In this document: positions 7,166 through 60,208 of the stretch, one piece after another
How the letters are laid out: each line of letters begins with the position of its first letter
Numbering within the stretch: position 1 is the stretch's first letter
DNA from: Bacteroidota bacterium
Lineage (GTDB): Bacteria; Bacteroidota; Bacteroidia; 2-12-FULL-35-15
DNA: 64,000 nucleotides
Direction: 5' to 3'
Assembly: GCA_025963715.1 (NCBI GenBank)
Contig: JAOQAG010000026.1
Span: forward strand, 80,327 to 144,326
Position numbers and translations under genes: made by a program
The notes under the pieces: generated by a model
What the model saw: the letters and a program-made list of their open reading frames with translations, nothing else
The model's database searches: none
What the model was told of the DNA's origin: nothing

Positions 7166-8125
7166 ATGAAAAAACTTTACACTTTATTAATGTTATCACT
7201 CAGCTTGCTGACATTAAAAACGGCAAAGGCGCAGGATCCGCAATTCACGCAGTTTTACGCCAATCCATTGTATTTGAATCCAGCACTTGCCGGAACAAAC
7301 ATCTGTCCGCGCATCTGCATCAATTACCGGAACCAATGGCCCGGCATTTCCGGAACATACGTTACCACCAGCGCTTCCTTCGATCGCTACATTTACCAGA
7401 TCAAAAGCGGAATTGGCGTATTGGTTACCAACGACAGGGCCGGACAAGGAACACTGAACACAACTAACATCAGCGCTATTTATTCGAAACAGATCCAGAT
7501 CAACCGCAACTTATCCATTAATGGCGGATTTAAAGCAACGTACGGGCAAAAATCCATCGACTGGAGCAAGCTTACCTTTGGTGATCAGATCAACGATCAG
7601 CGTGGATTTATTTACAATACAAATGAAACACACGGCGCTACCACCAAATCATTCGTTGATTTTTCGGCAGGATTGGTTGCCTTTACAAAACGCATGTTTA
7701 TTGGGTTTGCTGCCGATCACCTAACACAACCGGATGAAAGTTTGCTGGGCGGCGGACAAAGCAAACTGCCTGTAAAATTTACCGGCCATGCCGGAGCGAC
7801 TATTCCCATTGGCGGAAAAGAATCGGATGCAACCATTTCACCAAATGTTTTGTATCAGAAACAACAGGATTTTCAACAGCTGAATTTAGGTGTATACTTT
7901 ACAAAAGGTGCCATTGTAGGCGGATTGTGGTATCGCAACAGCGATGCATTTATTGTATTGATCGGCGTGCAGCACGGTATGTTTAAAGTAGGATACAGTT
8001 ACGATGTTACCGTTTCCAAATTAACAAACGCAACTGCAGGCTCACACGAATTATCAGTAGGATTACAATTTACCTGTAAAAAACCAAGACCAAAATATCG
8101 CCCGAGCACCTGCCCGAGCTTTTAA
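7166..8125 (+). CDS. Type IX secretion system membrane protein, PorP/SprF family
   Basis: 319 aa. Signal peptide then the hallmark QDPQFTQFYANPLYLNPALAG N-terminus of PorP/SprF. Predicted outer-membrane beta-barrel. Confidence 0.85.
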   Translation: MKKLYTLLMLSLSLLTLKTAKAQDPQFTQFYANPLYLNPALAGTNICPRICINYRNQWPGISGTYVTTSASFDRYIYQIKSGIGVLVTNDRAGQGTLNTTNISAIYSKQIQINRNLSINGGFKATYGQKSIDWSKLTFGDQINDQRGFIYNTNETHGATTKSFVDFSAGLVAFTKRMFIGFAADHLTQPDESLLGGGQSKLPVKFTGHAGATIPIGGKESDATISPNVLYQKQQDFQQLNLGVYFTKGAIVGGLWYRNSDAFIVLIGVQHGMFKVGYSYDVTVSKLTNATAGSHELSVGLQFTCKKPRPKYRPSTCPSF

Positions 8126-10214: not shown

Positions 10215-10700
10215 ATGAAACATTATTTCGTACTTTCTATTACCTGCTGCTTGATAGTACTAAGCGCAAAATCGCAGAGTGTTGCACCACAGGTGATTTC
10301 TACTTCGGGCACCAGCTTCAGCAATGCTTCCGGCCAGCTCGACTGGACCATCGGAGAACCCGTAACTTCCGCTTTGAGCGCTTCCGGCAACCAGCTGACC
10401 CAGGGCTTTCATCAGCCCAACCTGGTAATAACCGCGGTGAACGACCTTGCCGCTGATTACTCGGTAAACGTATACCCAAACCCAACCGTTGATTACGTTA
10501 CACTTCACTTCAACAATTTAAAAGAAACGCTTACGATCGAATTATATACAACCGATGGTAAACTATTGGAATCAAAGCAGGTAAACACACTTACAGATCT
10601 GCAGCTGAGCATGGCCGATTATGCTGCCGGAACGTATTTGCTTGCTTTAAGGACAACTAATTCTGCCACTAAAAATTACAAAATAATTAAATCCCATTGA
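10215..10700 (+). CDS. Small secreted protein with a T9SS type-A C-terminal sorting domain (Por_Secre_tail)
   Basis: Signal peptide [22 protein letters not shown]. The C-terminal ~80 aa ([20 protein letters not shown]...[23 protein letters not shown]) fits the type-A CTD. The start was moved to 10215 because of the promoter position. Confidence 0.7.
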
Positions 10701-10719: not shown

Positions 10720-11718
10720 ATGAAAAAACTATACTTATTCCTGATATTCAATTGTTTTATAGCTGTGGTATTTGCACAGGCCCCGCAGGGTTTTAATTAC
10801 CAGGCAGTAGCGCGTGATGCTTCCGGCGTGGCTTTAATCAATCAATCCGTTGGCCTGCAAATAAGTCTGTTACAGGGCAGCGCTACAGGAACAGCCGTTT
10901 ATACCGAAACACATACTCTTACTTCCAGCAACATTGGGTTATTAAACCTGACGATTGGTAACGGAACACCGGTTACAGGCACGTTCAGCAGCATTAATTG
11001 GGCGGCAGGCCCTTATTTTGTTGAGATCAGCATGGATGTTACCGGCGGAACAAGTTATGTGCTGATGGGAACACAACAATTAATGAGCGTACCTTATGCA
11101 TTATTTGCTGCCAACAGTGCCAGCGGAGTTGCAGGAGCAACAGGTGCTACCGGAAACGATGGCGCAACCGGAGCAACAGGCCCAATGGGACCAATGGGCA
11201 TGGGGATGCCAGGCATGCCTGGTAGTAATGGAGCAACAGGAGTTACAGGTGCAACAGGAAATACAGGTACTACAGGAGTTGTAGGAACTACAGGTGTTAC
11301 AGGCGCCACAGGAACTACCGGGGCAACAGGAGTTGCAGGAGTAACCGGTGTAACGGGAACAACAGGAGCTACCGGTGCAACACCAGCTTTTGCTGTTCAG
11401 TTCAATTTAGTGGATAACGGTTCGTTTTCAGCATGGCTGATCGGAAACACTTCCGATTATGTTTCCGGATCCAACTCAAATCCTACACTTACGCTGTACC
11501 GCGGCTTTACTTATTATTTTAATGTAACGATAAGCGGGCACCCTTTCCGGATTGCTTCTACCGCCGCATTCCCGGGAACTCCTTTTAACACAGGCGTTAC
11601 CAACCAGGATGCACAAGGCAGCATACTTATTTTTAAAGTACCGATGGACGCACCTTCCACATTGTATTATCACTGTATTTTTCACAGTGGCATGACCGGC
11701 GTGATCAATATTCTATAA
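10720..11718 (+). CDS. Secreted collagen-like (Gly-X-Y repeat) protein with a C-terminal cupredoxin (amicyanin/plastocyanin-like blue-copper) domain
   Basis: Signal peptide. ~115-aa N-domain shared with the next gene. ~80 uninterrupted G-X-Y triplets ([39 protein letters not shown]...). C-terminal ~110 aa with GHPFRI and [16 protein letters not shown], i.e. His...Cys-x2-His-x2-Met, very close to amicyanin MPHNVHF...YDYHCTPHPFMRGKVVV. Confidence 0.8.
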
Positions 11719-11745: not shown

Positions 11746-13734
11746 ATGAAAAAATTACTTCTACTCCTCCTCTTAAATGGACTTATCATTAATTCATTTG
11801 CACAGGCCCCACAGGGCTTTAACTACCAGGCCGTGGCACGCGATGCTTCCGGTGTGGCGCTTACCAACCAGGCCATTGGCTTACAGATCAGCCTCCGCCA
11901 GGGAACTGCCAGCGGAACCATCGTATATACCGAAACACATGCACTTACTTCCAACAATCTTGGATTATTAAATTTAGTAGTGGGAAACGGAACTCCCGTA
12001 ACCGGCACTTTTAATAGCATCGACTGGGCTGCCGGGTCTTACTTCATTGAAATAAGCATGGATGTAACCGGCGGAACAAGTTATGTGCTGATGGGAACAC
12101 AACAATTAATGAGTGTGCCATACGCATTATATGCAGCAAATGCGGGTAGTTCTGCTGGTGCTACAGGTGCAACTGGAATTACGGGCGCAACAGGAAATAA
12201 CGGAGCAGACGGCGCAACGGGCGCTACAGGAATAGCCGGAGCTACAGGAATGAATGGAACAGATGGTGCCACAGGAAATACAGGCCTTGCCGGAACTACA
12301 GGAGCAACAGGAAACGATGGTGCAACCGGGCCAATGGGCCCAATGGGGATGGGAATGCCAGGCATGCCTGGTAGCAATGGAGCTACCGGTACAACTGGTA
12401 TAACAGGAGCTACCGGAGCAGGAGTTGCAGGAACTACAGGGGCTACAGGAACAACAGGAGCAAATGGAACCACTGGTGCAACAGGTATTACCGGAGCGAC
12501 AGGCGCTGGAGTTGCTGGAACAACCGGTGTAACAGGTACAACAGGTGTGAGTGGAACCACTGGCGCAACAGGTATTACCGGGGCGACAGGTGCAGGTGTA
12601 GCCGGAACAACCGGTGTAACAGGTACAACAGGTGTGAGTGGAACCACTGGGGCTACAGGTATAACAGGAGCTACCGGGGCAGGAGTTGCAGGGGCTGCCG
12701 GAGTAACAGGAACTACAGGAGCAAATGGAACCACTGGGGCTACAGGTATAACAGGAGCAACAGGAACGGGAATTACTGGAGCAACAGGAACTACAGGTAC
12801 GAATGGGAATACTGGTGCAATTGGTATCACAGGAGCTACGGGTGTAGGAATTGCCGGAACTACAGGAGTAACCGGCGCTACAGGTGCGAATGGAACTACC
12901 GGTACTACAGGAGTTTCCGGAACAACGGGTGCAACAGGTATCGGTTACGGCGGCACTTCCAATTCACCAAAAACGCTGGGCACAGGCCCAGGAAAAACAT
13001 ATAGTACACAAGCCGGCCTTGCTTATATCGCAGGAGAGCGCATCAGGTTTGTTGACCAGACAACTTCAACTAACTTTATGGAAGGAACCATTGTTTCTTA
13101 CATTGGCACTACTATAGTCGCTAACATCGATAATGCGGGGGGAGCATTAGGAACAATAGTAAATAACTGGAACCTTAGTGTGGGAGGAAATTTAGGGACT
13201 ACGGGTGTAACGGGTTCAACCGGAGTTGTGGGAAGTGCAGGCGCCACAGGGATTACCGGAGCAACCGGAACCGGAGTTGCCGGAGCGACAGGCTCAACAG
13301 GCGCTACAGGCCCTGCCGGAAGTGCATCCTCCGAATATGCTTACATCTATAATACATCCGCACAATTTGTAACTTTAGGCCAAGCCGTTACATTTGATAC
13401 CAACGGGCCTCTTTCAGCTAACATTACACATAACCCCGGAGTTTCCTATATTTTTATAAATGTATCGGGAGTTTATAAAATTGAATTCTCAGTTTCCGGT
13501 GTTCAAACCAATCAATTCTCCATTTATCAGAATGGCGCATCTGTTGCTGGTGCCAGGTACGGTGCTGCTACCGGGACTACGCAAACTACCGGATTCGTGA
13601 TCATTAATGTTGTTGCAGGTGATGTGATCCAGTTAAACAATACCGGCTCGCCCGGCAGTACAAACCTGTCGGCAAACACAGGCGGGTCACTGGCTGCTGT
13701 AAATGCTTCTATCCTGATCACAAAATTAAATTAA
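11746..13734 (+). CDS. Secreted collagen-like (Gly-X-Y repeat) protein with a C-terminal BclA/C1q-like jelly-roll domain
   Basis: The N-domain is ~85% identical to the previous gene. Long G-X-Y tracts with 27-aa perfect repeats. The C-terminus (…[18 protein letters not shown]...[47 protein letters not shown]) resembles the BclA C-terminal / C1q-TNF fold. Confidence 0.75.
12480..12730. repeat. Near-perfect 81-bp tandem repeats within the collagen-like gene (27-aa [29 protein letters not shown] units)
   Basis: ggaacaaccggtgtaacaggtacaacaggtgtgagtggaaccactgg occurs at 12517-12563 and again exactly 81 bp later at 12598-12644, with further degenerate copies on both sides. Confidence 0.8.
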
Positions 13735-13756: not shown

Positions 13757-13793
13757 ACAGGCGCGGGTATACTATCCGCGCCTGTTTTTATTT
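13757..13793 (+). terminator. Rho-independent terminator at the end of the collagen-like operon
   Basis: ACAGGCGCGG-gtatactat-CCGCGCCTGT followed by TTTTTATTT. Confidence 0.75.
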
Positions 13794-42681: not shown

Positions 42682-45600
42682 ATGGCAACAAAAAAATACT
42701 GGAAAGGGCTTGATGAATTAAGTAACAGTCCTGAGTTTGTTCAAAACGCGAATAATGAATTTGCAGAACAACCACCTGTAGAAAAATTCCTGGAAAGCAA
42801 AAACCTCGGAAATGAAGGAACTAACCGCAGAGATTTTCTTAAGTTCTTAGGATTCAGCGTAACCGCTGCATCATTAGCTGCATGCGAAACTCCTGTAAAT
42901 AAAGCGATCCCTTACGTTATGAAACCCGAAGAAATTACTCCGGGTGTTGCAAACTGGTACGCTTCTACTTATTTTGACGGAAGAGATTACGCAGCTGTTT
43001 TGGTAAAAACACGTGAAGGCCGCCCTATCAAATTGATGGGAAACAACCTTTCTAAAGTAAGTTCCGCTACCAATGCACGGATCCAGGCTTCTGTACTTTC
43101 ATTATATGATTCTTCCCGCTTAAGCGGACCAATTGCAAACGGCAGCGCTTCTTCATGGAGCACTGTTGATAAAGAGATTGGACAAAAATTAAGCGCAATT
43201 GCTGCAAAAGGCGGTGCTATCCGTATCCTATCCTCTACCATTATCAGCCCTTCTACAAAAGCGGCGATCGCAGATTTTTCTGCTAAATATCCTACTACCA
43301 AGCTTGTAACATACGATGCGGTTTCTTATTCAGGGATCACAAAAGCAAACGAACAAACATTCGGACAAGCAGTAATTCCTACTTATTATTTTGATAAAGC
43401 ACAGATAGTAGTCAGCATCGGTGCGGATTTCCTTGCTAACTGGATCGAAGATTACTCTGTTGGATTTGCCAAAAACAGAAGAGTAAGCAAAGAGAATGCA
43501 ACAATGTCCAAACATTACCAGTTCGAATCCAACTTATCATTGACTGGTGCTAATGCAGATGAACGCACACCGGTTAAAGTTTCCGAACAAGGTAAAGTAG
43601 TTGTGAACTTATACAATGCAGTTGCTAAGATCGTTGGTGGTTCTTCCATCCCTTCTTCAGCATTGCCTTACGATGAAGAGATCGCAAAAGCAGCAAAAGA
43701 CTTAGCTGCTAACAAAGGAAAATCACTGGTTGTTGCGGGTTCAAACGATGTGAACGTTCAATTGGTAGTAAACGCCATCAATAAAATGCTGGACAACTAC
43801 GGAAAAACAATTGACCTGGAAAATCCAAGCTTCTTAAATCAAAGTGATGATAAAGCTTTTGCTGATTTGGTTACCGATATGGCTTCCGGAAAAGTAGATG
43901 CACTGATCACATACAATACAAACCCTGTATACACAGCACCCGCTTCTTTAAAATTTGCGGATGCATATAATAAAGTAGGTTTGCGGATCTCATTTGCCGA
44001 TAAAGCAGATGAAACGGCATCCATGGCAAATTATATCTGTCCTGATCACCATTACCTGGAATCATGGAACGATTTTAACCCACGCATAGCGCACTACAGT
44101 TTATCACAGCCAACTATTTCTCCTTTATATTCTACACGCCAGGCACAGGAAACATTGTTGAAATGGAGCGGTAACACTACCGATTTCCATTCTTACATGC
44201 AAAAAGTATGGCAGGAGCGCGTATTCCCGATGCAGGGAAAATACATGGCATTCCCTGAATTCTGGAACCACTCCTTACAGGATGGCGCTATTGAAGTTGG
44301 TAAAGGCGAAGAAATAACAATGGCTTCGGGAGCCGACAGCTTAAAAGCTGCACCGGTAGCTGTGAAAGGTGCTAAAAAAGAAGAAAAACCAAAAGAAGAG
44401 CCTAAAGCTCCGGTTGCTGCAGTTGACCTGAATAGTGCGGCACAAAAAATAAACGCTGCAAAAAGCGCTGGAAACGGCAACTTTGAGTTAGCGATCTACG
44501 AAAAAGTAGGGATTGGTAACGGTAACCAGGCAAACAACCCCTGGCTGCAGGAATTACCGGATCCTATCACTAAAATTACCTGGGACAATTACGTAACGAT
44601 GTCGCCTGCCGACATGGTAGATGAAAAAGGAGAGCCGATCTATGACCTGATGAAACGCCAGGACAGAACAGCAAGTCTTGTGAACGTTACTGTAAACGGA
44701 CAAACTATTAAATTACCTGTAGTTCCTCAACCGGGACAAGCACGCGGTACCATCGGTATTGCATTGGGTTACGGAAGAGATAAAGCAGGTTCATTAAGCG
44801 AGCGCGTTGGAACCGTGATCGGTAAAAACGTATATCCGTTCACACAAATGGCGGATGGTACTATTATTTACGCAGCACTGGATGCAAAAGTAGAGAGCGC
44901 TAACGAAACCACTCAAATTGCAGGAACGCAGGTTCACCATACATTAATGGGCCGCGAGATCGTGAAAGAAACTGTTCTTTCTGAATATCAGAAAAATCAA
45001 AAAGCAGGTAATGCGGATGATATGCTGACCACCAATTCCGGCAAAATAAAAGCTGCCGATGTTGATTTGTGGGATGCATTTCCGCGTCCGGGCCATGTAT
45101 GGGGAATGACCATCGACTTGAACTCTTGTTTTGGTTGTGGTGCCTGTGTTGTGAGCTGTACTGCTGAAAACAACGTTGCTGTTGTAGGTAAAGAACAAGT
45201 AATGAAAACACGCGAAATGCACTGGTTGCGGATCGATCGTTATTATACTACCAACTGGCCGAACGAAGGAAAAGAAGCGAAAGACCTGGCAAAAGAAAAA
45301 CACGAAGGTGCAATTGCCATGTACCTGGATATGGAAAATCCGGAAGCAATCAATCCGAAAGTAGTTTTCCAGCCAATGATGTGTCAGCACTGTAACCACG
45401 CACCCTGCGAAAACGTTTGCCCTGTATTGGCTACCAACCACAGCTCCGACGGATTAAATACAATGGCTTACAACCGCTGCGTTGGTACCCGTTACTGCGC
45501 AAATAACTGTCCTTTTAAAGTAAGACGTTTCAACTGGTTCAACTACAACGGAAACGCTGATTTCACATTCAACCCTTCACAGGACGATTTAGGACGTATG

Positions 45601-45960
45601 GTTTTAAACCCGGACGTAGTAGTTCGTTCCCGTGGTGTAATGGAAAAATGCTCTATGTGCGTTCAACGCATCCAGGCTGGTAAATTAGAAGCGAAAAAAG
45701 CAGAACGCGTATTGGTGGATGCTGATGTAAATACTGCTTGTGCTGATGCTTGTCCTACCAACGCAATTGTGTTTGGTGACTTAAGTAATCCGGATAGCGC
45801 AATCAGCAAATTGAGAGCTCAGGAAAAAGACGGACGTAATTACTTTGTATTGGAAGAACTCGGTATAAAACCAACAGTATCTTACTTAACAAAAGTGAGA
45901 AACTGCGAAGAAACCGTATACAAAGGAGCAGAAGAAAAATCGGAGAAAGCGGAAGCTTAA
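42682..45960 (+). CDS. actB: Alternative complex III subunit ActB (molybdopterin-oxidoreductase-like plus 4Fe-4S ferredoxin-like domains)
   Basis: 1092 aa. Tat signal RRDFLKFLGFSVTAAS. Multiple Cys clusters (CFGCGACVVSC, CQHCNHAPCENVCP, CVGTRYCANNCP, CSMCVQR..., CADACPTNA). Confidence 0.9.
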   Translation: MATKKYWKGLDELSNSPEFVQNANNEFAEQPPVEKFLESKNLGNEGTNRRDFLKFLGFSVTAASLAACETPVNKAIPYVMKPEEITPGVANWYASTYFDGRDYAAVLVKTREGRPIKLMGNNLSKVSSATNARIQASVLSLYDSSRLSGPIANGSASSWSTVDKEIGQKLSAIAAKGGAIRILSSTIISPSTKAAIADFSAKYPTTKLVTYDAVSYSGITKANEQTFGQAVIPTYYFDKAQIVVSIGADFLANWIEDYSVGFAKNRRVSKENATMSKHYQFESNLSLTGANADERTPVKVSEQGKVVVNLYNAVAKIVGGSSIPSSALPYDEEIAKAAKDLAANKGKSLVVAGSNDVNVQLVVNAINKMLDNYGKTIDLENPSFLNQSDDKAFADLVTDMASGKVDALITYNTNPVYTAPASLKFADAYNKVGLRISFADKADETASMANYICPDHHYLESWNDFNPRIAHYSLSQPTISPLYSTRQAQETLLKWSGNTTDFHSYMQKVWQERVFPMQGKYMAFPEFWNHSLQDGAIEVGKGEEITMASGADSLKAAPVAVKGAKKEEKPKEEPKAPVAAVDLNSAAQKINAAKSAGNGNFELAIYEKVGIGNGNQANNPWLQELPDPITKITWDNYVTMSPADMVDEKGEPIYDLMKRQDRTASLVNVTVNGQTIKLPVVPQPGQARGTIGIALGYGRDKAGSLSERVGTVIGKNVYPFTQMADGTIIYAALDAKVESANETTQIAGTQVHHTLMGREIVKETVLSEYQKNQKAGNADDMLTTNSGKIKAADVDLWDAFPRPGHVWGMTIDLNSCFGCGACVVSCTAENNVAVVGKEQVMKTREMHWLRIDRYYTTNWPNEGKEAKDLAKEKHEGAIAMYLDMENPEAINPKVVFQPMMCQHCNHAPCENVCPVLATNHSSDGLNTMAYNRCVGTRYCANNCPFKVRRFNWFNYNGNADFTFNPSQDDLGRMVLNPDVVVRSRGVMEKCSMCVQRIQAGKLEAKKAERVLVDADVNTACADACPTNAIVFGDLSNPDSAISKLRAQEKDGRNYFVLEELGIKPTVSYLTKVRNCEETVYKGAEEKSEKAEA

Positions 45961-46017
45961 CCAGGCAACGAATAAAAAAGAACGAATAACATAATTTTAT
46001 AATTTCAAAAGTATAAT

Positions 46018-47415
46018 ATGCAGCACGAATCGGAAATTAGAGAGCCGTTAATCCTTGGTAAAAAATCGTATCATCAAATTACTGAAGATATCGTAAGGCC
46101 AATTGAGGGCAAAGCTACAAAGTATTGGTACATGCTTCTTACTGTATCCATCATCTGCTTTTTATGGGGGATCATGTGTTTGTGCTACACCATCGGAACA
46201 GGTATTGGTGTTTGGGGATCCAATAACGGTGTTGACTGGGCCTGGGATATCACCAACTTTGTATGGTGGATCGGTATCGGTCACGCCGGAACATTGATCT
46301 CTGCGGTATTATTACTGTTCCGCCAGAAATGGAGAATGGCCATCAACCGCTCTGCGGAAGCGATGACGATTTTCGCCGTAATGTGTGCTGCCATTTTCGT
46401 ATTGTTACACACCGGCCGTCCATGGTTGGATTATTTCTTATTTCCATTGCCAAATCAATTCGGCTCACTATGGGTTAACTTTAACTCGCCGTTGATGTGG
46501 GACGTGTTTGCGGTATCTACTTATTTCTCTGTATCCTTAGTATTCTGGTATACTGGCTTGGTTCCTGATTTTGCGATGATCCGCGACAGGGCAGTGAAAC
46601 CAATGGCTAAAAAAATGTATGGCCTGTTAAGTATGGGTTGGGGCGGAAGTGCCCGTCACTGGAGCCGTTTTGAAGAAGTATCGCTGGTACTTGCAGGTTT
46701 ATCCACACCACTTGTATTTTCGGTTCACTCGATCGTATCCACCGACTTTGCTACATCCGTTGTACCGGGCTGGCACACCACAATCTTCCCTCCTTATTTC
46801 GTTGCCGGAGCGGTATTCTCAGGTTTTGCAATGGTATTAACACTGTTGCTCATCATGCGTAAGATCTACCGTTTGGAAAACTACATTACTATCAAACACA
46901 TCGAGTACATGAACATTGTAATCATTGTTACAGGTTCTATCGTAGGTGTGGCTTACTTAACTGAGTTATTTATTTCCTGGTATTCAGGAGTGGAATACGA
47001 ACAATATGCATTCCTTAACCGTGCAACCGGTCCATACTGGTGGGCATACGCAATGATGATGACCTGTAACGTGGTTTCACCTCAGCTGTTCTGGTCTAAA
47101 AAGTTACGTACAAACTTAATGTTCACCTTCGTGATGTCCATCATCGTGAACATCGGTATGTGGTTCGAGCGTTTTGTAATCATCGTGCCTACATTATGCC
47201 GTACATTCCTTCCATCTACCTGGAACATGTATCATCCAACGTTTGTGGACATCGGGATCTATACCGGAACAATCGGAATGTTCTTTACATTCTTCCTGTT
47301 GTTTACCCGTTATTTCCCTGTGATCGCGCAAGCGGAGTTGAAATCAATTATGAAATCATCCGGACAGGAATACAAAGAAAAAGCGGCTCATTCACATGAT
47401 GAGGCACAGCACTAA
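46018..47415 (+). CDS. actC: Alternative complex III subunit ActC (NrfD/PsrC-like polytopic membrane subunit)
   Basis: 465 aa, ~10 TM helices. Position in the cluster. Confidence 0.85.
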   Translation: MQHESEIREPLILGKKSYHQITEDIVRPIEGKATKYWYMLLTVSIICFLWGIMCLCYTIGTGIGVWGSNNGVDWAWDITNFVWWIGIGHAGTLISAVLLLFRQKWRMAINRSAEAMTIFAVMCAAIFVLLHTGRPWLDYFLFPLPNQFGSLWVNFNSPLMWDVFAVSTYFSVSLVFWYTGLVPDFAMIRDRAVKPMAKKMYGLLSMGWGGSARHWSRFEEVSLVLAGLSTPLVFSVHSIVSTDFATSVVPGWHTTIFPPYFVAGAVFSGFAMVLTLLLIMRKIYRLENYITIKHIEYMNIVIIVTGSIVGVAYLTELFISWYSGVEYEQYAFLNRATGPYWWAYAMMMTCNVVSPQLFWSKKLRTNLMFTFVMSIIVNIGMWFERFVIIVPTLCRTFLPSTWNMYHPTFVDIGIYTGTIGMFFTFFLLFTRYFPVIAQAELKSIMKSSGQEYKEKAAHSHDEAQH

Positions 47416-56641: not shown

Positions 56642-59600
56642 TTATTGTTGCGCTAACAGGGTAACGTGTCCCGTGTAATCGTGCAATCGCTGTTCGAAAT
56701 CACGCACGGTTATTTTGTAAACATAAACGCCATTTTCGGAGATCTTGCTGCCGTTCTTTACAGTTCCGTTCCAACCGTTCTTTATATCGTTGGTTTGGAA
56801 GATCAATTCGCCCCAGCGATCAAAGATCATCATTTTAAATTCGGAGATCTGGTCGCCTTTGGCTGTAAAATAATCGTTGGTACCGTTTTCATCCGGCGTA
56901 AACGCGTTTGGAATGTACAGTGTAAACAATGGTTTTATTTGTACGACCTCCGAAACCGAATCGAGGCAACCGGCGCTGCTGGCGGTAAAAAGTTTTACTT
57001 TGTAATCACCTTGCTGCGCATACGTATGCTCCGGATCATTATCGGTGGATGTGGCACCATCGCCAAAATCCCATTGATACGTAGCTGCATTCACCGAGAT
57101 ATTATTGAATTTATACACAGGGCTGATAGTTGTTCCATCCATTGCTTCCGATGTAAATTGTGCCAGGGAACCGGCATTAACAGTTACATTGTTTGCCACG
57201 CTTGCCGTATTCACACATCCGAAAAGCGACGTAACAATTACTGTAACATTATACACGCCGGTGGTGGTGTAGCCATGAACGGGGCTTGCAATACTGGCTG
57301 TGGCGCCATCGCCAAAATCCCAATTGTAAGCAGCACCTGTGTTGGTGGGAGAATGATCTGTAAAATTCAATTGCACTTCTTTACAACCAACTGCAGCCTG
57401 GGGCACTATATCGATCACCGGCAAAGGGTTTACTGTGACCGGAACAGATCCGGTCACTGCATTTCCACATGCATCGGTAACGGTAACAATATAGTTGGTT
57501 GAATTGGCCGGAGAAACTGTGAACGGCCCGTTTCCGCCGCCAAGACTATTGCTCCAGCTGACGGTAACCGGGCCGGTTTGCCCGGCTACGGCCGAACCAA
57601 TAACTGCAGCATTTCCATAACAGATGGCTGTAGCACCTGTAACGGTAAGGTTTGCAGCAGTTAAAGAAGTAACTGTAATGGCAAGTGTTGCTGTGTTGCT
57701 GGTGCAGCCGTTTGCATCGGTTGCTGTAACATTGTACACGGAAGAGCTAACCGGGCTAACGGTTTGCGTTGCGCCCGCTCCTACTCCGGTCCAGTTGTAG
57801 GAATATCCGGGATTACCGCCGGAAGCTGCCGCTGCGATGGTTGTGTTTTGTCCGAGGCAAATGGTGGTGCCGCCTGTTGCAGTAACCACAACCGGTGCAG
57901 GTTGTGTAACTGCCAGTGTTGAGCTGGCGCTGCAACCATTTGCATCGGTTACATTGATGGTGTATGTACCCGGGCACAAGCCGTTTGCAGCCGGGCTGGT
58001 ACCGCCATCGGGCAACCATTGATAGGAGTAAGAGGGTGAACCACCTGCGGGAATAACAACGGTTTGTCCGTTACAGGCACCGTTACAGGTGACAGGAAAT
58101 GCCGCTGTTGAGAGTGTTAAAGCAGGTGGTTCTGTGATGGTCACAAACGATGTGGCGATACAACTATTCGCATCTGTGACGGTTACAAAATAATTTCCGG
58201 GAGCCAATGCGTTTACAGATTGTGTACTTGTGGCCGGGCTGGTGGTCCAGTTATAACTGTATGCTCCGGTTCCGCCGGATGCACCCACGGTTGCAAATCC
58301 ATCGGCGAGGCCGTTACAAGTTACATTGTGAACGATCATGGCATTGGCATTTAATGCGGCAGGCTGTGTGATTGTAATGCCTGTTACGGCAGCATTACAG
58401 CCGTTTGCATCGGTAATTGTTGCCGTATAATTTGCTGCATTTAAATTGGTTGCCGTAGGCGTGATTTGCACCGGCGTTGTATTCCACGCGTACGTGTATG
58501 GAGCTGTACCACCTGTAGTGGCAATGCTTGCAGAACCATTGGCTGATCCATTGCAGGAAACATTTACCTGCGAAGTGGAATAAGTTATTGGCGCAAGCGG
58601 TTGTGTAATGCTTACTGAACTGTTGGTAACGCAGCCATTGCCGGTAGTTACAGAAAAGTTGTATGTGCCGGGAGTCAGGCTGGTAATGGATGATGTGGTA
58701 GCACCGTTTGACCAGTGATAAATATACGGTGCTAATCCACCTGTAACGTTTGCAGTAGCAACACCTGTTCCTGCTCCAAAACAGCTTACGTTGGTAGAAT
58801 TGATGACAACATTTGCAGGCGCTGCACCGCTTGCTACTAGTATACTTGCAGAGCCTGTGCAGCCACCGGAACCTGTTACGTTAATGGTATAAATACCTGC
58901 GGCAAGCGTTCCCGCCGTGATGCCGGTTCCGCCGGAAGGCAGCCATTGGTAGGTATAAGGGCCACTTCCTGAAAGAATTTGAACAGTGGCTGTACCATTG
59001 GATGCGTTGCAATTATCGGGGGTTGAAACGGTATTTAAGATGACGCCTGTGACGCTGATGCAAAATGAAAATGTTTGACTTCCGTTAAAAGGACAATTAT
59101 CATCGCGGACGGTAACGGTAAAACAATTGGATGCGTTACCGATATCGGTGATGGATGGTGTCCAGCTGAAAGTACCGGTTGGACGGGCGCCACCGCTGGA
59201 AGTAAATGTTCCGGCTGCGATACCGCTGTTCCAGGTAATGGTTACATTTTGAGTAGAATCAAGATCATAGGTTGGTATATTAAAATTGATAGGTACGCCT
59301 GCGCAGGCGGTTAATGAATATTGACCGGAGTTGTTAATGCCGTTCACATACGGATTATTGTTGGTGCAGGTCATGGTTCGCAATTGAATATCGCGCATGA
59401 CGCTGCCGACAAGAACTTCCTGGCGCCATTCTTTTACGAGAACTGTAAATACGGTTACTTCTAATTGTGTTGGTGTCATGCACATATCACCGGTTAAGGG
59501 ATTGAATGCAACTGCGGGCGAAGAGAGTAATGGTTGTGTTGCAGAATAGGGTGCAATGTAAGAAACGGTTGAAGTAGCACTGGTTTCGGGCGTAATGAGT

Positions 59601-60208
59601 GTATAGGATAATGAGTCGCCATCAATATCGGATGAACCGTTGTTAAAACAATACGGCTGGCCGATACAGACAAAGGGGATTGGCGGATTAGAAAATGTGG
59701 GAGAGCTGTTGCAGGGGAAATCCAGGTTATTTAAGAATGCTTCGATGTACATGTTTTCGGACGATGGGTTGAGGATGGTTCCGATGGATGTATTACGGCA
59801 GCAGATGCTGAAACTAAAATGCCAGTCGCTGCAGGCCATGGGTAACGTAGTAACTCCTGTGTATTTATATTCCTGTACGCCGGGATAAACACCTCCGGCA
59901 CAAACTGAGGTTAGTGATGAACAGATGGGGGATACATCCGTTCCGGTTCCGGGAATTTGATTGAGCGTAAGGTCGAAGTTTGGTCCGCAGGAAGCAGACG
60001 AAATATTTATGGTAACAGTATTGGGAGCGGCAACTCCCGCACAGTCGCGGTAGAAGGAGAGATTGATGCGGTATTGATTTCCGCCGAGGCATTGGTAAGT
60101 GATATCTGCGCTTTGAGCATGTGATGCAAAGGCCTCATTTTGTGATTGGATAAACATTAAAATGAAACTGATCCAAAAGAAAACTTTGTGTTTTAAATGC
60201 GTATTCAT
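56642..60208 (-). CDS. Large secreted adhesin-like protein with SprB repeats and PKD domains, ending in a T9SS type-B C-terminal domain (gliding-motility-associated CTD)
   Basis: 1188 aa. Signal peptide. Cys-rich N-domain. ~8 SprB-type repeats (…PYTYQWLPSGGTG…GIYTINVTGSGGCTGSA…). Two PKD-like segments (YNWDFGDGAT…, YQWDFGDGAT…). C-terminus LYIPNAFTPDENGTNDYF…IFDRWGELIF…GVYVYKI…GHVTLLAQQ. Confidence 0.85.
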   Translation of the reverse strand: MNTHLKHKVFFWISFILMFIQSQNEAFASHAQSADITYQCLGGNQYRINLSFYRDCAGVAAPNTVTINISSASCGPNFDLTLNQIPGTGTDVSPICSSLTSVCAGGVYPGVQEYKYTGVTTLPMACSDWHFSFSICCRNTSIGTILNPSSENMYIEAFLNNLDFPCNSSPTFSNPPIPFVCIGQPYCFNNGSSDIDGDSLSYTLITPETSATSTVSYIAPYSATQPLLSSPAVAFNPLTGDMCMTPTQLEVTVFTVLVKEWRQEVLVGSVMRDIQLRTMTCTNNNPYVNGINNSGQYSLTACAGVPINFNIPTYDLDSTQNVTITWNSGIAAGTFTSSGGARPTGTFSWTPSITDIGNASNCFTVTVRDDNCPFNGSQTFSFCISVTGVILNTVSTPDNCNASNGTATVQILSGSGPYTYQWLPSGGTGITAGTLAAGIYTINVTGSGGCTGSASILVASGAAPANVVINSTNVSCFGAGTGVATANVTGGLAPYIYHWSNGATTSSITSLTPGTYNFSVTTGNGCVTNSSVSITQPLAPITYSTSQVNVSCNGSANGSASIATTGGTAPYTYAWNTTPVQITPTATNLNAANYTATITDANGCNAAVTGITITQPAALNANAMIVHNVTCNGLADGFATVGASGGTGAYSYNWTTSPATSTQSVNALAPGNYFVTVTDANSCIATSFVTITEPPALTLSTAAFPVTCNGACNGQTVVIPAGGSPSYSYQWLPDGGTSPAANGLCPGTYTINVTDANGCSASSTLAVTQPAPVVVTATGGTTICLGQNTTIAAAASGGNPGYSYNWTGVGAGATQTVSPVSSSVYNVTATDANGCTSNTATLAITVTSLTAANLTVTGATAICYGNAAVIGSAVAGQTGPVTVSWSNSLGGGNGPFTVSPANSTNYIVTVTDACGNAVTGSVPVTVNPLPVIDIVPQAAVGCKEVQLNFTDHSPTNTGAAYNWDFGDGATASIASPVHGYTTTGVYNVTVIVTSLFGCVNTASVANNVTVNAGSLAQFTSEAMDGTTISPVYKFNNISVNAATYQWDFGDGATSTDNDPEHTYAQQGDYKVKLFTASSAGCLDSVSEVVQIKPLFTLYIPNAFTPDENGTNDYFTAKGDQISEFKMMIFDRWGELIFQTNDIKNGWNGTVKNGSKISENGVYVYKITVRDFEQRLHDYTGHVTLLAQQ

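Follow-up and report, generated by a model that had tools for sequence, protein, structure and literature searches.

A collagen-like fibre gene with a BclA-type head in a Bacteroidota genome, and the mosaic protein family that shares its base domain

We analyzed a 64,000-nucleotide stretch of a Bacteroidota bacterium (GenBank assembly GCA_025963715.1, contig JAOQAG010000026.1, positions 80,327 to 144,326 of the forward strand), hereafter the window, and focused on an open reading frame (ORF) at 11746..13734 (+) that encodes 662 aa. This ORF, gene B, follows a shorter paralogue, gene A (10720..11718, +, 332 aa), and a small gene that we call the partner (10215..10700, +). The account of gene B that we favor, with moderate confidence, is that it encodes a trimeric collagen-like surface adhesin fibre, with a base domain like that of the mosaic adhesive trimer (MAT) fibres of Bdellovibrio and a BclA/C1q-type knob, and that this fibre is docked to, or co-exported with, the product of the partner gene. 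While collagen stalks, BclA/C1q heads, and MAT-like bases are each known, their combination in a phylum carrying the type IX secretion system (T9SS) is new. The literature that we searched contains no description of the family of N-terminal domains to which the base belongs (hereafter N-domain), of this combination of stalk, head, and base, of the linkage to the partner, or of the export of such fibres as passengers of the T9SS.

In the mechanism that we propose, the product of gene B would be exported by the Sec pathway and form a homotrimeric collagen-like fibre of ~90 nm, whose head and stalk would trimerise as those of BclA and F-BclA do. The stalk would be a Thr-rich G-X-T collagen with regular kinks and one bead domain. 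The BclA/C1q-type knob, placed at the tip and turned outward from the cell surface, would bind a ligand. Genes A and B would hold different heads at ~25 nm and ~90 nm, respectively, and the base would remain constant across a very large mosaic family in which stalks and heads are exchanged. The partner may dock the base domain at the cell surface or take part in its export.

A BclA-like head on a collagen-like stalk

The head of gene B (13327..13734, +, aa 528-662 plus the stop codon) is C-terminal and directly follows the Gly-X-Y region, which ends at residue 527. An earlier note on this DNA, made from the letters alone, had described the C-terminal domain as BclA/C1q-like, and profile searches agree. 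When scanned in isolation, residues 522-662 match the Pfam profile BclA_C (PF18573) with 49.0 bits (E=7e-13), above the gathering cut-off of 38. The full-length Pfam scan of gene B listed Collagen only, and BclA_C surfaced once the head was scanned alone. The C1q profile (PF00386) gives 16.3 bits on the isolated head (E=0.011), under its cut-off of 23.7 bits, and the similarity to C1q thus stands at the level of the clan only. The head also matches the PDB entry 9H38_A (F-BclA-CTD) with E=4.7e-20 over 131 residues (8-138 versus 12-145). The 9H38 source paper describes this entry as the C-terminal, C1q-like domain of F-BclA, which forms the collagen-like fibrillum at the tip of the F-ENA appendages of Bacillus thuringiensis. 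By homology to 9H38, the head is predicted to fold as a trimeric jelly-roll. A direct phmmer search with the head found F-BclA, and BclA itself was not among its matches.

The closest relatives of the head are metagenomic proteins (62-73% identity), followed by BclA_C proteins of Bacillales (45-50%). Two Bacillus cereus phages carry it at 41-43% identity, and it matches phrog_30509, annotated as 'collagen like minor tail', with an E-value of 7e-36. In its closest Bacteroidota-looking relatives, N-terminal regions of at least two other kinds precede the head (P0122-P0128; P0126), which indicates that the head itself is a shuffled module. Four of these proteins (P0122, P0123, P0125, and P0128) have a different N-module (…SAMLDV.ST.KG.L.PRMT..QR…, PF26696 in the precomputed Pfam annotation), then a short collagen tract, and then the BclA_C head. 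A PF26696-type N-module also occurs downstream of a bead domain in another fibre (locus L065, 4846-6261). The combinations of PF26696-type modules with BclA_C heads are a further sign of module shuffling among fibres of Bacteroidota.

The Gly-X-Y triplets of gene B number 98 and form ten runs, compared with 28 triplets in gene A, in line with the much longer tracts that had been noted before for gene B. The Pfam Collagen profile (PF01391) matches gene B with 116 bits (E=5e-34), relative to a cut-off of 27.2. The triplets form two stalks: stalk 1 (12157..12945, +, aa 138-400) and stalk 2 (13186..13326, +, aa 481-527). Taking a rise per residue of ~0.28 nm, from 701 residues that span 196 nm (PMC12357932), they would measure ~74 and 13 nm if triple-helical, and the stalk of gene A ~24 nm. 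Thr occupies the Y position in 64 of the 98 triplets, the X position is usually taken by Ala, Thr, Ile, or Val, and Pro occurs only 4 times in the stalk. The motif of Bacteroidetes O-glycosylation, D-(S/T)-(A/I/L/V/M/T), is absent from the fibres of both genes.

Stalk 1 is interrupted by eight register breaks of one residue, several of which recur every 29 residues. This periodic unit is mirrored in the DNA by an 87-bp tandem repeat (4.3 copies, 12392-12765). One of the breaks is a Met-rich block of 15 residues common to genes A and B, whose DNA (12319-12383 versus 11170-11234) is 89% identical over 65 nt. In the orthologue of gene B at locus L083 (1846-3720 of that locus), a Met-rich break of 13 residues followed by (P/N)G occurs three times. 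The Met-rich break appears to be a conserved kink or recognition element.

Between the two stalks lies the bead domain (12946..13185, +, aa ~401-480), which has no sequence match in Pfam, NCBIfam, or PDB and returned no relatives in a word-indexed homologue search. Neither this domain nor the register breaks, the Met-rich block, or the T9SS partner gene had been pointed out in the earlier note. Pattern scans recovered it in 54 metagenome loci and 37 IMG/VR loci. ORFs with the module number 48 in metagenomes and 34 among the 'viral' contigs of IMG/VR. Each of these proteins has 1-7 copies, mostly set between stretches of collagen repeats, and only 3 of the bead-bearing ORFs also have the N-domain. 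The viral status of the contigs is that given by the IMG/VR classification only, and a PHROG scan of the neighbours of bead ORFs on them showed no hallmark virion genes within 3 kb. The module was found in no curated phage genome that we searched.

The base domain defines a very large family of Bacteroidota

The signal peptide of gene B, as read from the sequence, spans aa 1-19 (11746..11802, +; ...SFA|Q) and leaves Gln20 as the mature N-terminus; the signal peptides of genes A and B both end ...FAQ|APQGF. Gln20 is invariant across 85 members of the N-domain family. A Gln at position +1 fits the Bacteroidetes Q-rule for substrates of signal peptidase I (PMC5837995, PMC10653852).

The N-domain follows immediately (11803..12150, +, aa 20-135). 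An AF2 model built with 53 sequences is a 7-strand beta-sandwich with a pLDDT of 88.6 and a pTM of 0.80. No Pfam model matches the domain, and the precomputed set holds no Pfam annotation on relatives that share only the N-domain. A Foldseek search of the model against the PDB gave nothing below E=1e-3, and in BFVD the only similarities were marginal ones (E=4e-4, TM ~0.5), with predicted minor tail proteins of phages. The NCBIfam profile NF053851 (Bdello_MAT_N) matches gene B with 36.2 bits (E=5e-9) and gene A with 34.2 bits. It is matched by all 53 family members tested, with a best E-value of 3.7e-15 and every score under the cut-off of 60 bits. Judging from these profile matches, the N-domain is a remote relative of the base domain of Bdellovibrio MAT fibres, in the sense of remote homology and not of membership in the subfamily. 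In Bdellovibrio bacteriovorus, the base domain of MAT fibres is invariable and without a homologue in the PDB, and the C-terminal tips vary (Caulton et al. 2024, PMC10769870). It was proposed to lie beside the cell surface, and its presumed ligand is a surface element (PMC10769870).

The earlier note had called the N-domain novel. This holds insofar as Pfam has no model for it, but not in view of its remote homology to Bdello_MAT_N or of its abundance: a profile of the domain, searched against 1.84 billion cluster representatives, matched 34,197 at E<=1e-3, of which 16,797 reached E<=1e-30. In all 148 of the best representatives it starts within residues 1-15. The matches in genomes are almost all in Bacteroidota, in Flavobacteriales, Chitinophagales, Saprospiraceae, Bacteroidales, Cytophagales, and Sphingobacteriales. 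The comparative genomics that had been suggested for Bacteroidota thus reveals a huge family, nearly confined to this phylum, with varied heads. The possibility that the N-domain is a generic signal or pro-region was not borne out, given the confidently modelled 7-strand fold and the strong purifying selection described below.

Of 2.9 million viral contigs, 2 have the domain, and a search of 50,697 phage genomes did not find it at all. The two contigs, both from IMG/VR (L081, 54 kb, and L082, 88 kb), have the T9SS partner directly upstream of the N-domain gene, and may be misclassified cellular DNA or regions flanking prophages. Some relatives have several N-domains: P0145 (916 aa) has five or six divergent copies in tandem, then a C-terminal tail that looks T9SS-like by eye (no profile search was run on this tail), and P0146 (548 aa) has two copies and then a further C-terminal region. 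The domain can therefore also serve as a repeated spacer.

Genes A and B are old paralogues

Gene A encodes a signal peptide, the N-domain, the 28 triplets, and a head of 112 aa. The window holds exactly two copies of the N-domain, those of genes A and B (tblastn). In a direct alignment the mature domains (aa 20-133) are 84% identical, very close to the ~85% previously estimated for the N-terminal ~120 aa, and the first 140 aa are 79% identical. A BLASTP comparison of the two proteins did not report this N-terminal match, which the direct alignment and tblastn show clearly; the miss was probably caused by composition correction and low-complexity filtering in collagen-rich sequence.

The DNA of the two genes is less alike than the 'nearly duplicated' of the earlier note would imply. 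Positions 10780-11110 and 11806-12136 are 76.7% identical in an ungapped alignment, and the differences at codon positions 1, 2, and 3 number 15, 10, and 57. For this comparison dN is 0.10, dS is ~2.1 (saturated), and dN/dS is 0.05. Since synonymous sites are saturated and dN/dS is this low, genes A and B are old paralogues whose N-domain has been held by selection, and their likeness reflects conservation of the protein, not a recent duplication of DNA. Despite the saturation elsewhere, there is a run of ~45 identical nucleotides (11076-11122 versus 12102-12148) that encodes 15 residues in both paralogues. It could be the result of local gene conversion or of a constraint at the nucleotide level.

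A conserved T9SS partner upstream of the fibre genes

The partner gene encodes 161 aa counted from MKHYF: a signal peptide, a mini-domain of ~45-50 aa, and a T9SS type A C-terminal domain (CTD). The latter matches the Pfam profile Por_Secre_tail (E=6e-11) and TIGR04183 (42 bits, cut-off 23). The mini-domain has the consensus ...W/F-T-I/L-G-E...L-T-Q-G-F-H-Q-P. The gaps between the partner and gene A (19 nt) and between genes A and B (27 nt) are short, and 23 nt past the stop codon of gene B there is a terminator-like hairpin (13757-13785, listed to 13795, +) with a 13-bp stem, 8 G-C pairs, and a T-run after it. Given this arrangement, the three genes are probably co-transcribed as one operon.

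The association extends well beyond the window. A homologue of the non-CTD part of the partner is directly upstream, on the same strand, in 49 of the 93 N-domain genes that could be assessed, and where fibre genes form tandem arrays it stands before the first one. The cultured Edaphocola flava HME-24 (L037) has this order, with the partner ahead of two fibre genes. All-against-all clustering of ORFs showed that the partner is the only recurrent neighbour of N-domain genes (57 of 82 loci; the next cluster is found in 10 loci). It is absent from all 88 control loci without the N-domain. Among the 91 loci selected for the bead (446 kb) it occurs once, beside the N-domain fibre gene of L083. Two loci with the partner directly upstream of an N-domain fibre gene come from a Candidatus Competibacteraceae metagenome-assembled genome (MAG; L025) and a Bifidobacteriaceae MAG (L041); both contigs probably belong to Bacteroidota and were misplaced in binning.

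We then compared pairwise distances between sequences. Those of the partner mini-domain correlate with those of the adjacent fibre N-domain (r=0.65), and less with those of the partner's own CTD (r=0.45). The partial correlation given the partner CTD is 0.54 (permutation p=5e-4). This is suggestive of a link between the partner and the base domain, but the same pattern would arise if the two genes were passed on as one cassette.

The window has further components related to the T9SS. A gene of the PorP/SprF family is found at 7166-8125, and a gene on the minus strand (56642-60208) encodes a 1188-aa protein with SprB repeats, PKD domains, and a CHU_C (type B) sorting domain. With the type A domain of the partner, the organism thus has T9SS cargo of both sorting-domain types.

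These data led us to a broader and more tentative idea, which we consider possible but doubtful at this stage: that the T9SS partner and the MAT_N-like base make up a two-component system of fibre display widespread in Bacteroidota. The ~45-aa module would be exported by the T9SS, and the type A sorting domain may then attach it to the outer membrane. Either it would serve as a dock for the base of fibres without a sorting domain, or it would carry them through the T9SS translocon as passengers. If true, this would account for the arrival at the surface of more than 10,000 mosaic fibres that have no known outer-membrane targeting signal, and would provide an evolutionary tie to the prey-recognition fibres of Bdellovibrio.

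Mosaic heads and a variable fibre slot

The 85 members of the N-domain family carry 33 Pfam families. The most frequent are Fib_succ_major (21 of 85), MopE-type motifs (18), Collagen (15), Phage_T7_tail (12), and Lcl_C (11), and the rarer ones include PKD, DUF285, fn3, YadA_head, LamG, and CBM_4_9, among others.

The same variability is seen at the locus itself. Loci L001 and L002 have the flanks of the window (GlyRS 92% and DUF3109 88-90% identical). In the slot between GlyRS and DUF3109, the former has one fibre gene of 740 aa with an unrelated C-terminal region, and the latter has one of 337 aa that is an orthologue of gene A. With a single fibre gene per slot in these loci, gene B is an additional tandem paralogue in a variable fibre slot. 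In a different context, locus L003 combines a gene A-type head with a bead-like domain, which was seen by eye and in alignment A4 and was not detected by the profile, and L083 encodes a 624-aa protein with the full architecture of gene B.

In the head of gene A (aa 221-332), an H...C-x2-H-x2/3-M motif is invariant between the window protein and two of its orthologues (P0196 and P0215); by eye, it is also present in the other two (L002 and L003). The spacing of this motif resembles that of type-1 copper sites. However, no cupredoxin profile of Pfam matches the head at E<=10. An AF2 model built from three sequences is poor (pLDDT 51.9), and Foldseek of this model against the PDB gave no cupredoxin (best E=0.018). 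The head matches phrog_677, annotated as 'baseplate wedge tail fiber protein connector', with E=6e-29. The earlier note had proposed that one N-module and stalk are tipped by two unrelated heads, cupredoxin or C1q-like. The two heads indeed have no detectable similarity and that of gene B is of the C1q type, but the cupredoxin label for gene A was not confirmed and is unverified, the motif being its sole support.

Elsewhere in the window, on the plus strand at 42682-47415, we found a gene for a 1092-aa protein with 4Fe-4S dicluster domains followed by one for an NrfD-family membrane protein, an arrangement that looks like an operon of the alternative complex III type.

Alternative explanations

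The modules shared with phages raise the question of whether gene B, instead of encoding a cellular surface structure, is the collagen-like tail-fibre gene of a phage or prophage, or what remains of such a gene. Such an origin would account for the matches of the two heads to phrog_30509 and phrog_677, for the head found in two Bacillus cereus phages, and for the 34 bead-bearing ORFs on IMG/VR viral contigs. However, there are no phage genes nearby: the flanks encode GlyRS, DUF3109, and ribonucleotide reductase, and relatives show synteny at this slot. Furthermore, the Sec signal peptide obeys the Q-rule, viral collections are almost without the N-domain, and the partner is T9SS cargo. The likenesses of bead and head probably reflect an exchange of modules, and we regard a phage origin as very improbable. 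Another view is that the N-domain, instead of being an anchor, nucleates the folding or trimerisation of the stalk or serves as a generic spacer of the Ig-like type, and that the partner is independent cargo sharing the operon. The fold does resemble generic beta-sandwiches, some proteins have 2-6 N-domains in tandem, and 30% of the loci have no nearby partner gene; Scl and similar bacterial collagens, moreover, trimerise through a non-collagen N-terminal domain. Yet most members have non-collagen stalks or heads and still the same N-domain right after the signal peptide, and the BclA_C head is already a trimerising unit. As the partner is also the sole conserved neighbour across the orders of Bacteroidota and is absent from control loci, we find this view unlikely. 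It is also rather unlikely that the fibre is a released component of the matrix or biofilm, cargo of outer-membrane vesicles, or periplasmic, instead of a cell-anchored adhesin. Its lack of an outer-membrane anchor, a lipobox, or a T9SS domain would fit with this, as would the fact that BclA-type fibres of Bacillus promote clustering between particles, whereas the heads of the family are typical of surface-adhesin or carbohydrate-binding modules and fibres with the homologous MAT base domain have been shown on the surface of Bdellovibrio.

Several points nevertheless weigh against gene B encoding a partner-docked surface adhesin fibre. The weakest step is the crossing of the outer membrane: neither gene A nor gene B has a T9SS CTD (TIGR04183, PF18962, or CHU_C) at E<=1 in Pfam and E<=10 in NCBIfam. 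About 30% of the N-domain loci have no partner within 6 kb, and the co-inheritance of both genes as a cassette can also yield a correlation of distances. Bdello_MAT_N is matched with 35-36 bits, under its cut-off of 60, and the few family members with tandem copies mean that the N-domain is not strictly a terminal anchor. Finally, the stalk is almost devoid of Pro and of charged residues, so that the stability of its triple helix is assumed and perhaps depends on glycosylation.

Comparison with known fibres

Like BclA and F-BclA of the Bacillus cereus group, gene B combines a G-X-T collagen stalk with a C1q/TNF-like knob, and the heads are homologous; like that of F-BclA, its stalk is rich in Ser and Thr. 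It would also resemble BclA-type fibres in depending on a separate anchoring element at the N-terminus. The Bacillus fibres are held by dedicated anchor proteins, a role that the partner may have here. In contrast to BclA, the host is a Gram-negative, non-spore-forming member of Bacteroidota. Instead of the exosporium leader or the F-ENA hook peptide, the N-terminus of gene B has a Sec signal peptide and a MAT_N-like beta-sandwich, and gene B is therefore not an orthologue of BclA. The stalk is built of G-(A/T/I/V)-T and not GPT triplets, and has a bead domain.

The family of gene B shares with MAT fibres a beta-rich base domain of the ~130-aa class right after the signal peptide, variable tips, several paralogues per genome, and some phage-like modules. 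Unlike the stalk of MAT fibres, which is an intertwined beta-prism, that of gene B would be a collagen triple helix. The two also differ in phylum, in the linked T9SS-dependent partner gene, and in that Pfam reported no S74 chaperone-protease domain in gene B. The collagen-repeat stalk is further shared with Scl1/Scl2 of Streptococcus and Lcl of Legionella, and Lcl_C heads are found elsewhere in the N-domain family. The NCBIfam matches of gene B to these proteins are driven by the repeats (98 bits versus an equivalog cut-off of 500), there is no LPXTG, and the N- and C-terminal domains are different. Phage collagen-like minor tail proteins (phrog_30509) resemble gene B in the head, the bead module, and the collagen tracts between globular beads, but gene B differs from them by its signal peptide, its cellular base domain, its housekeeping context, and the lack of virion genes nearby.

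Significance

With ~34,000 clusters at 50% identity, the family marked by the base domain is among the largest of the uncurated secreted-protein families of Bacteroidota. Its phage-like shuffling of heads and the presence of different heads in one slot among close relatives suggest a rapid diversification of what these bacteria stick to. Within this family, the conserved T9SS partner is a concrete and testable candidate for the mounting of the fibres, and would be the type of anchor to seek in Bdellovibrio.

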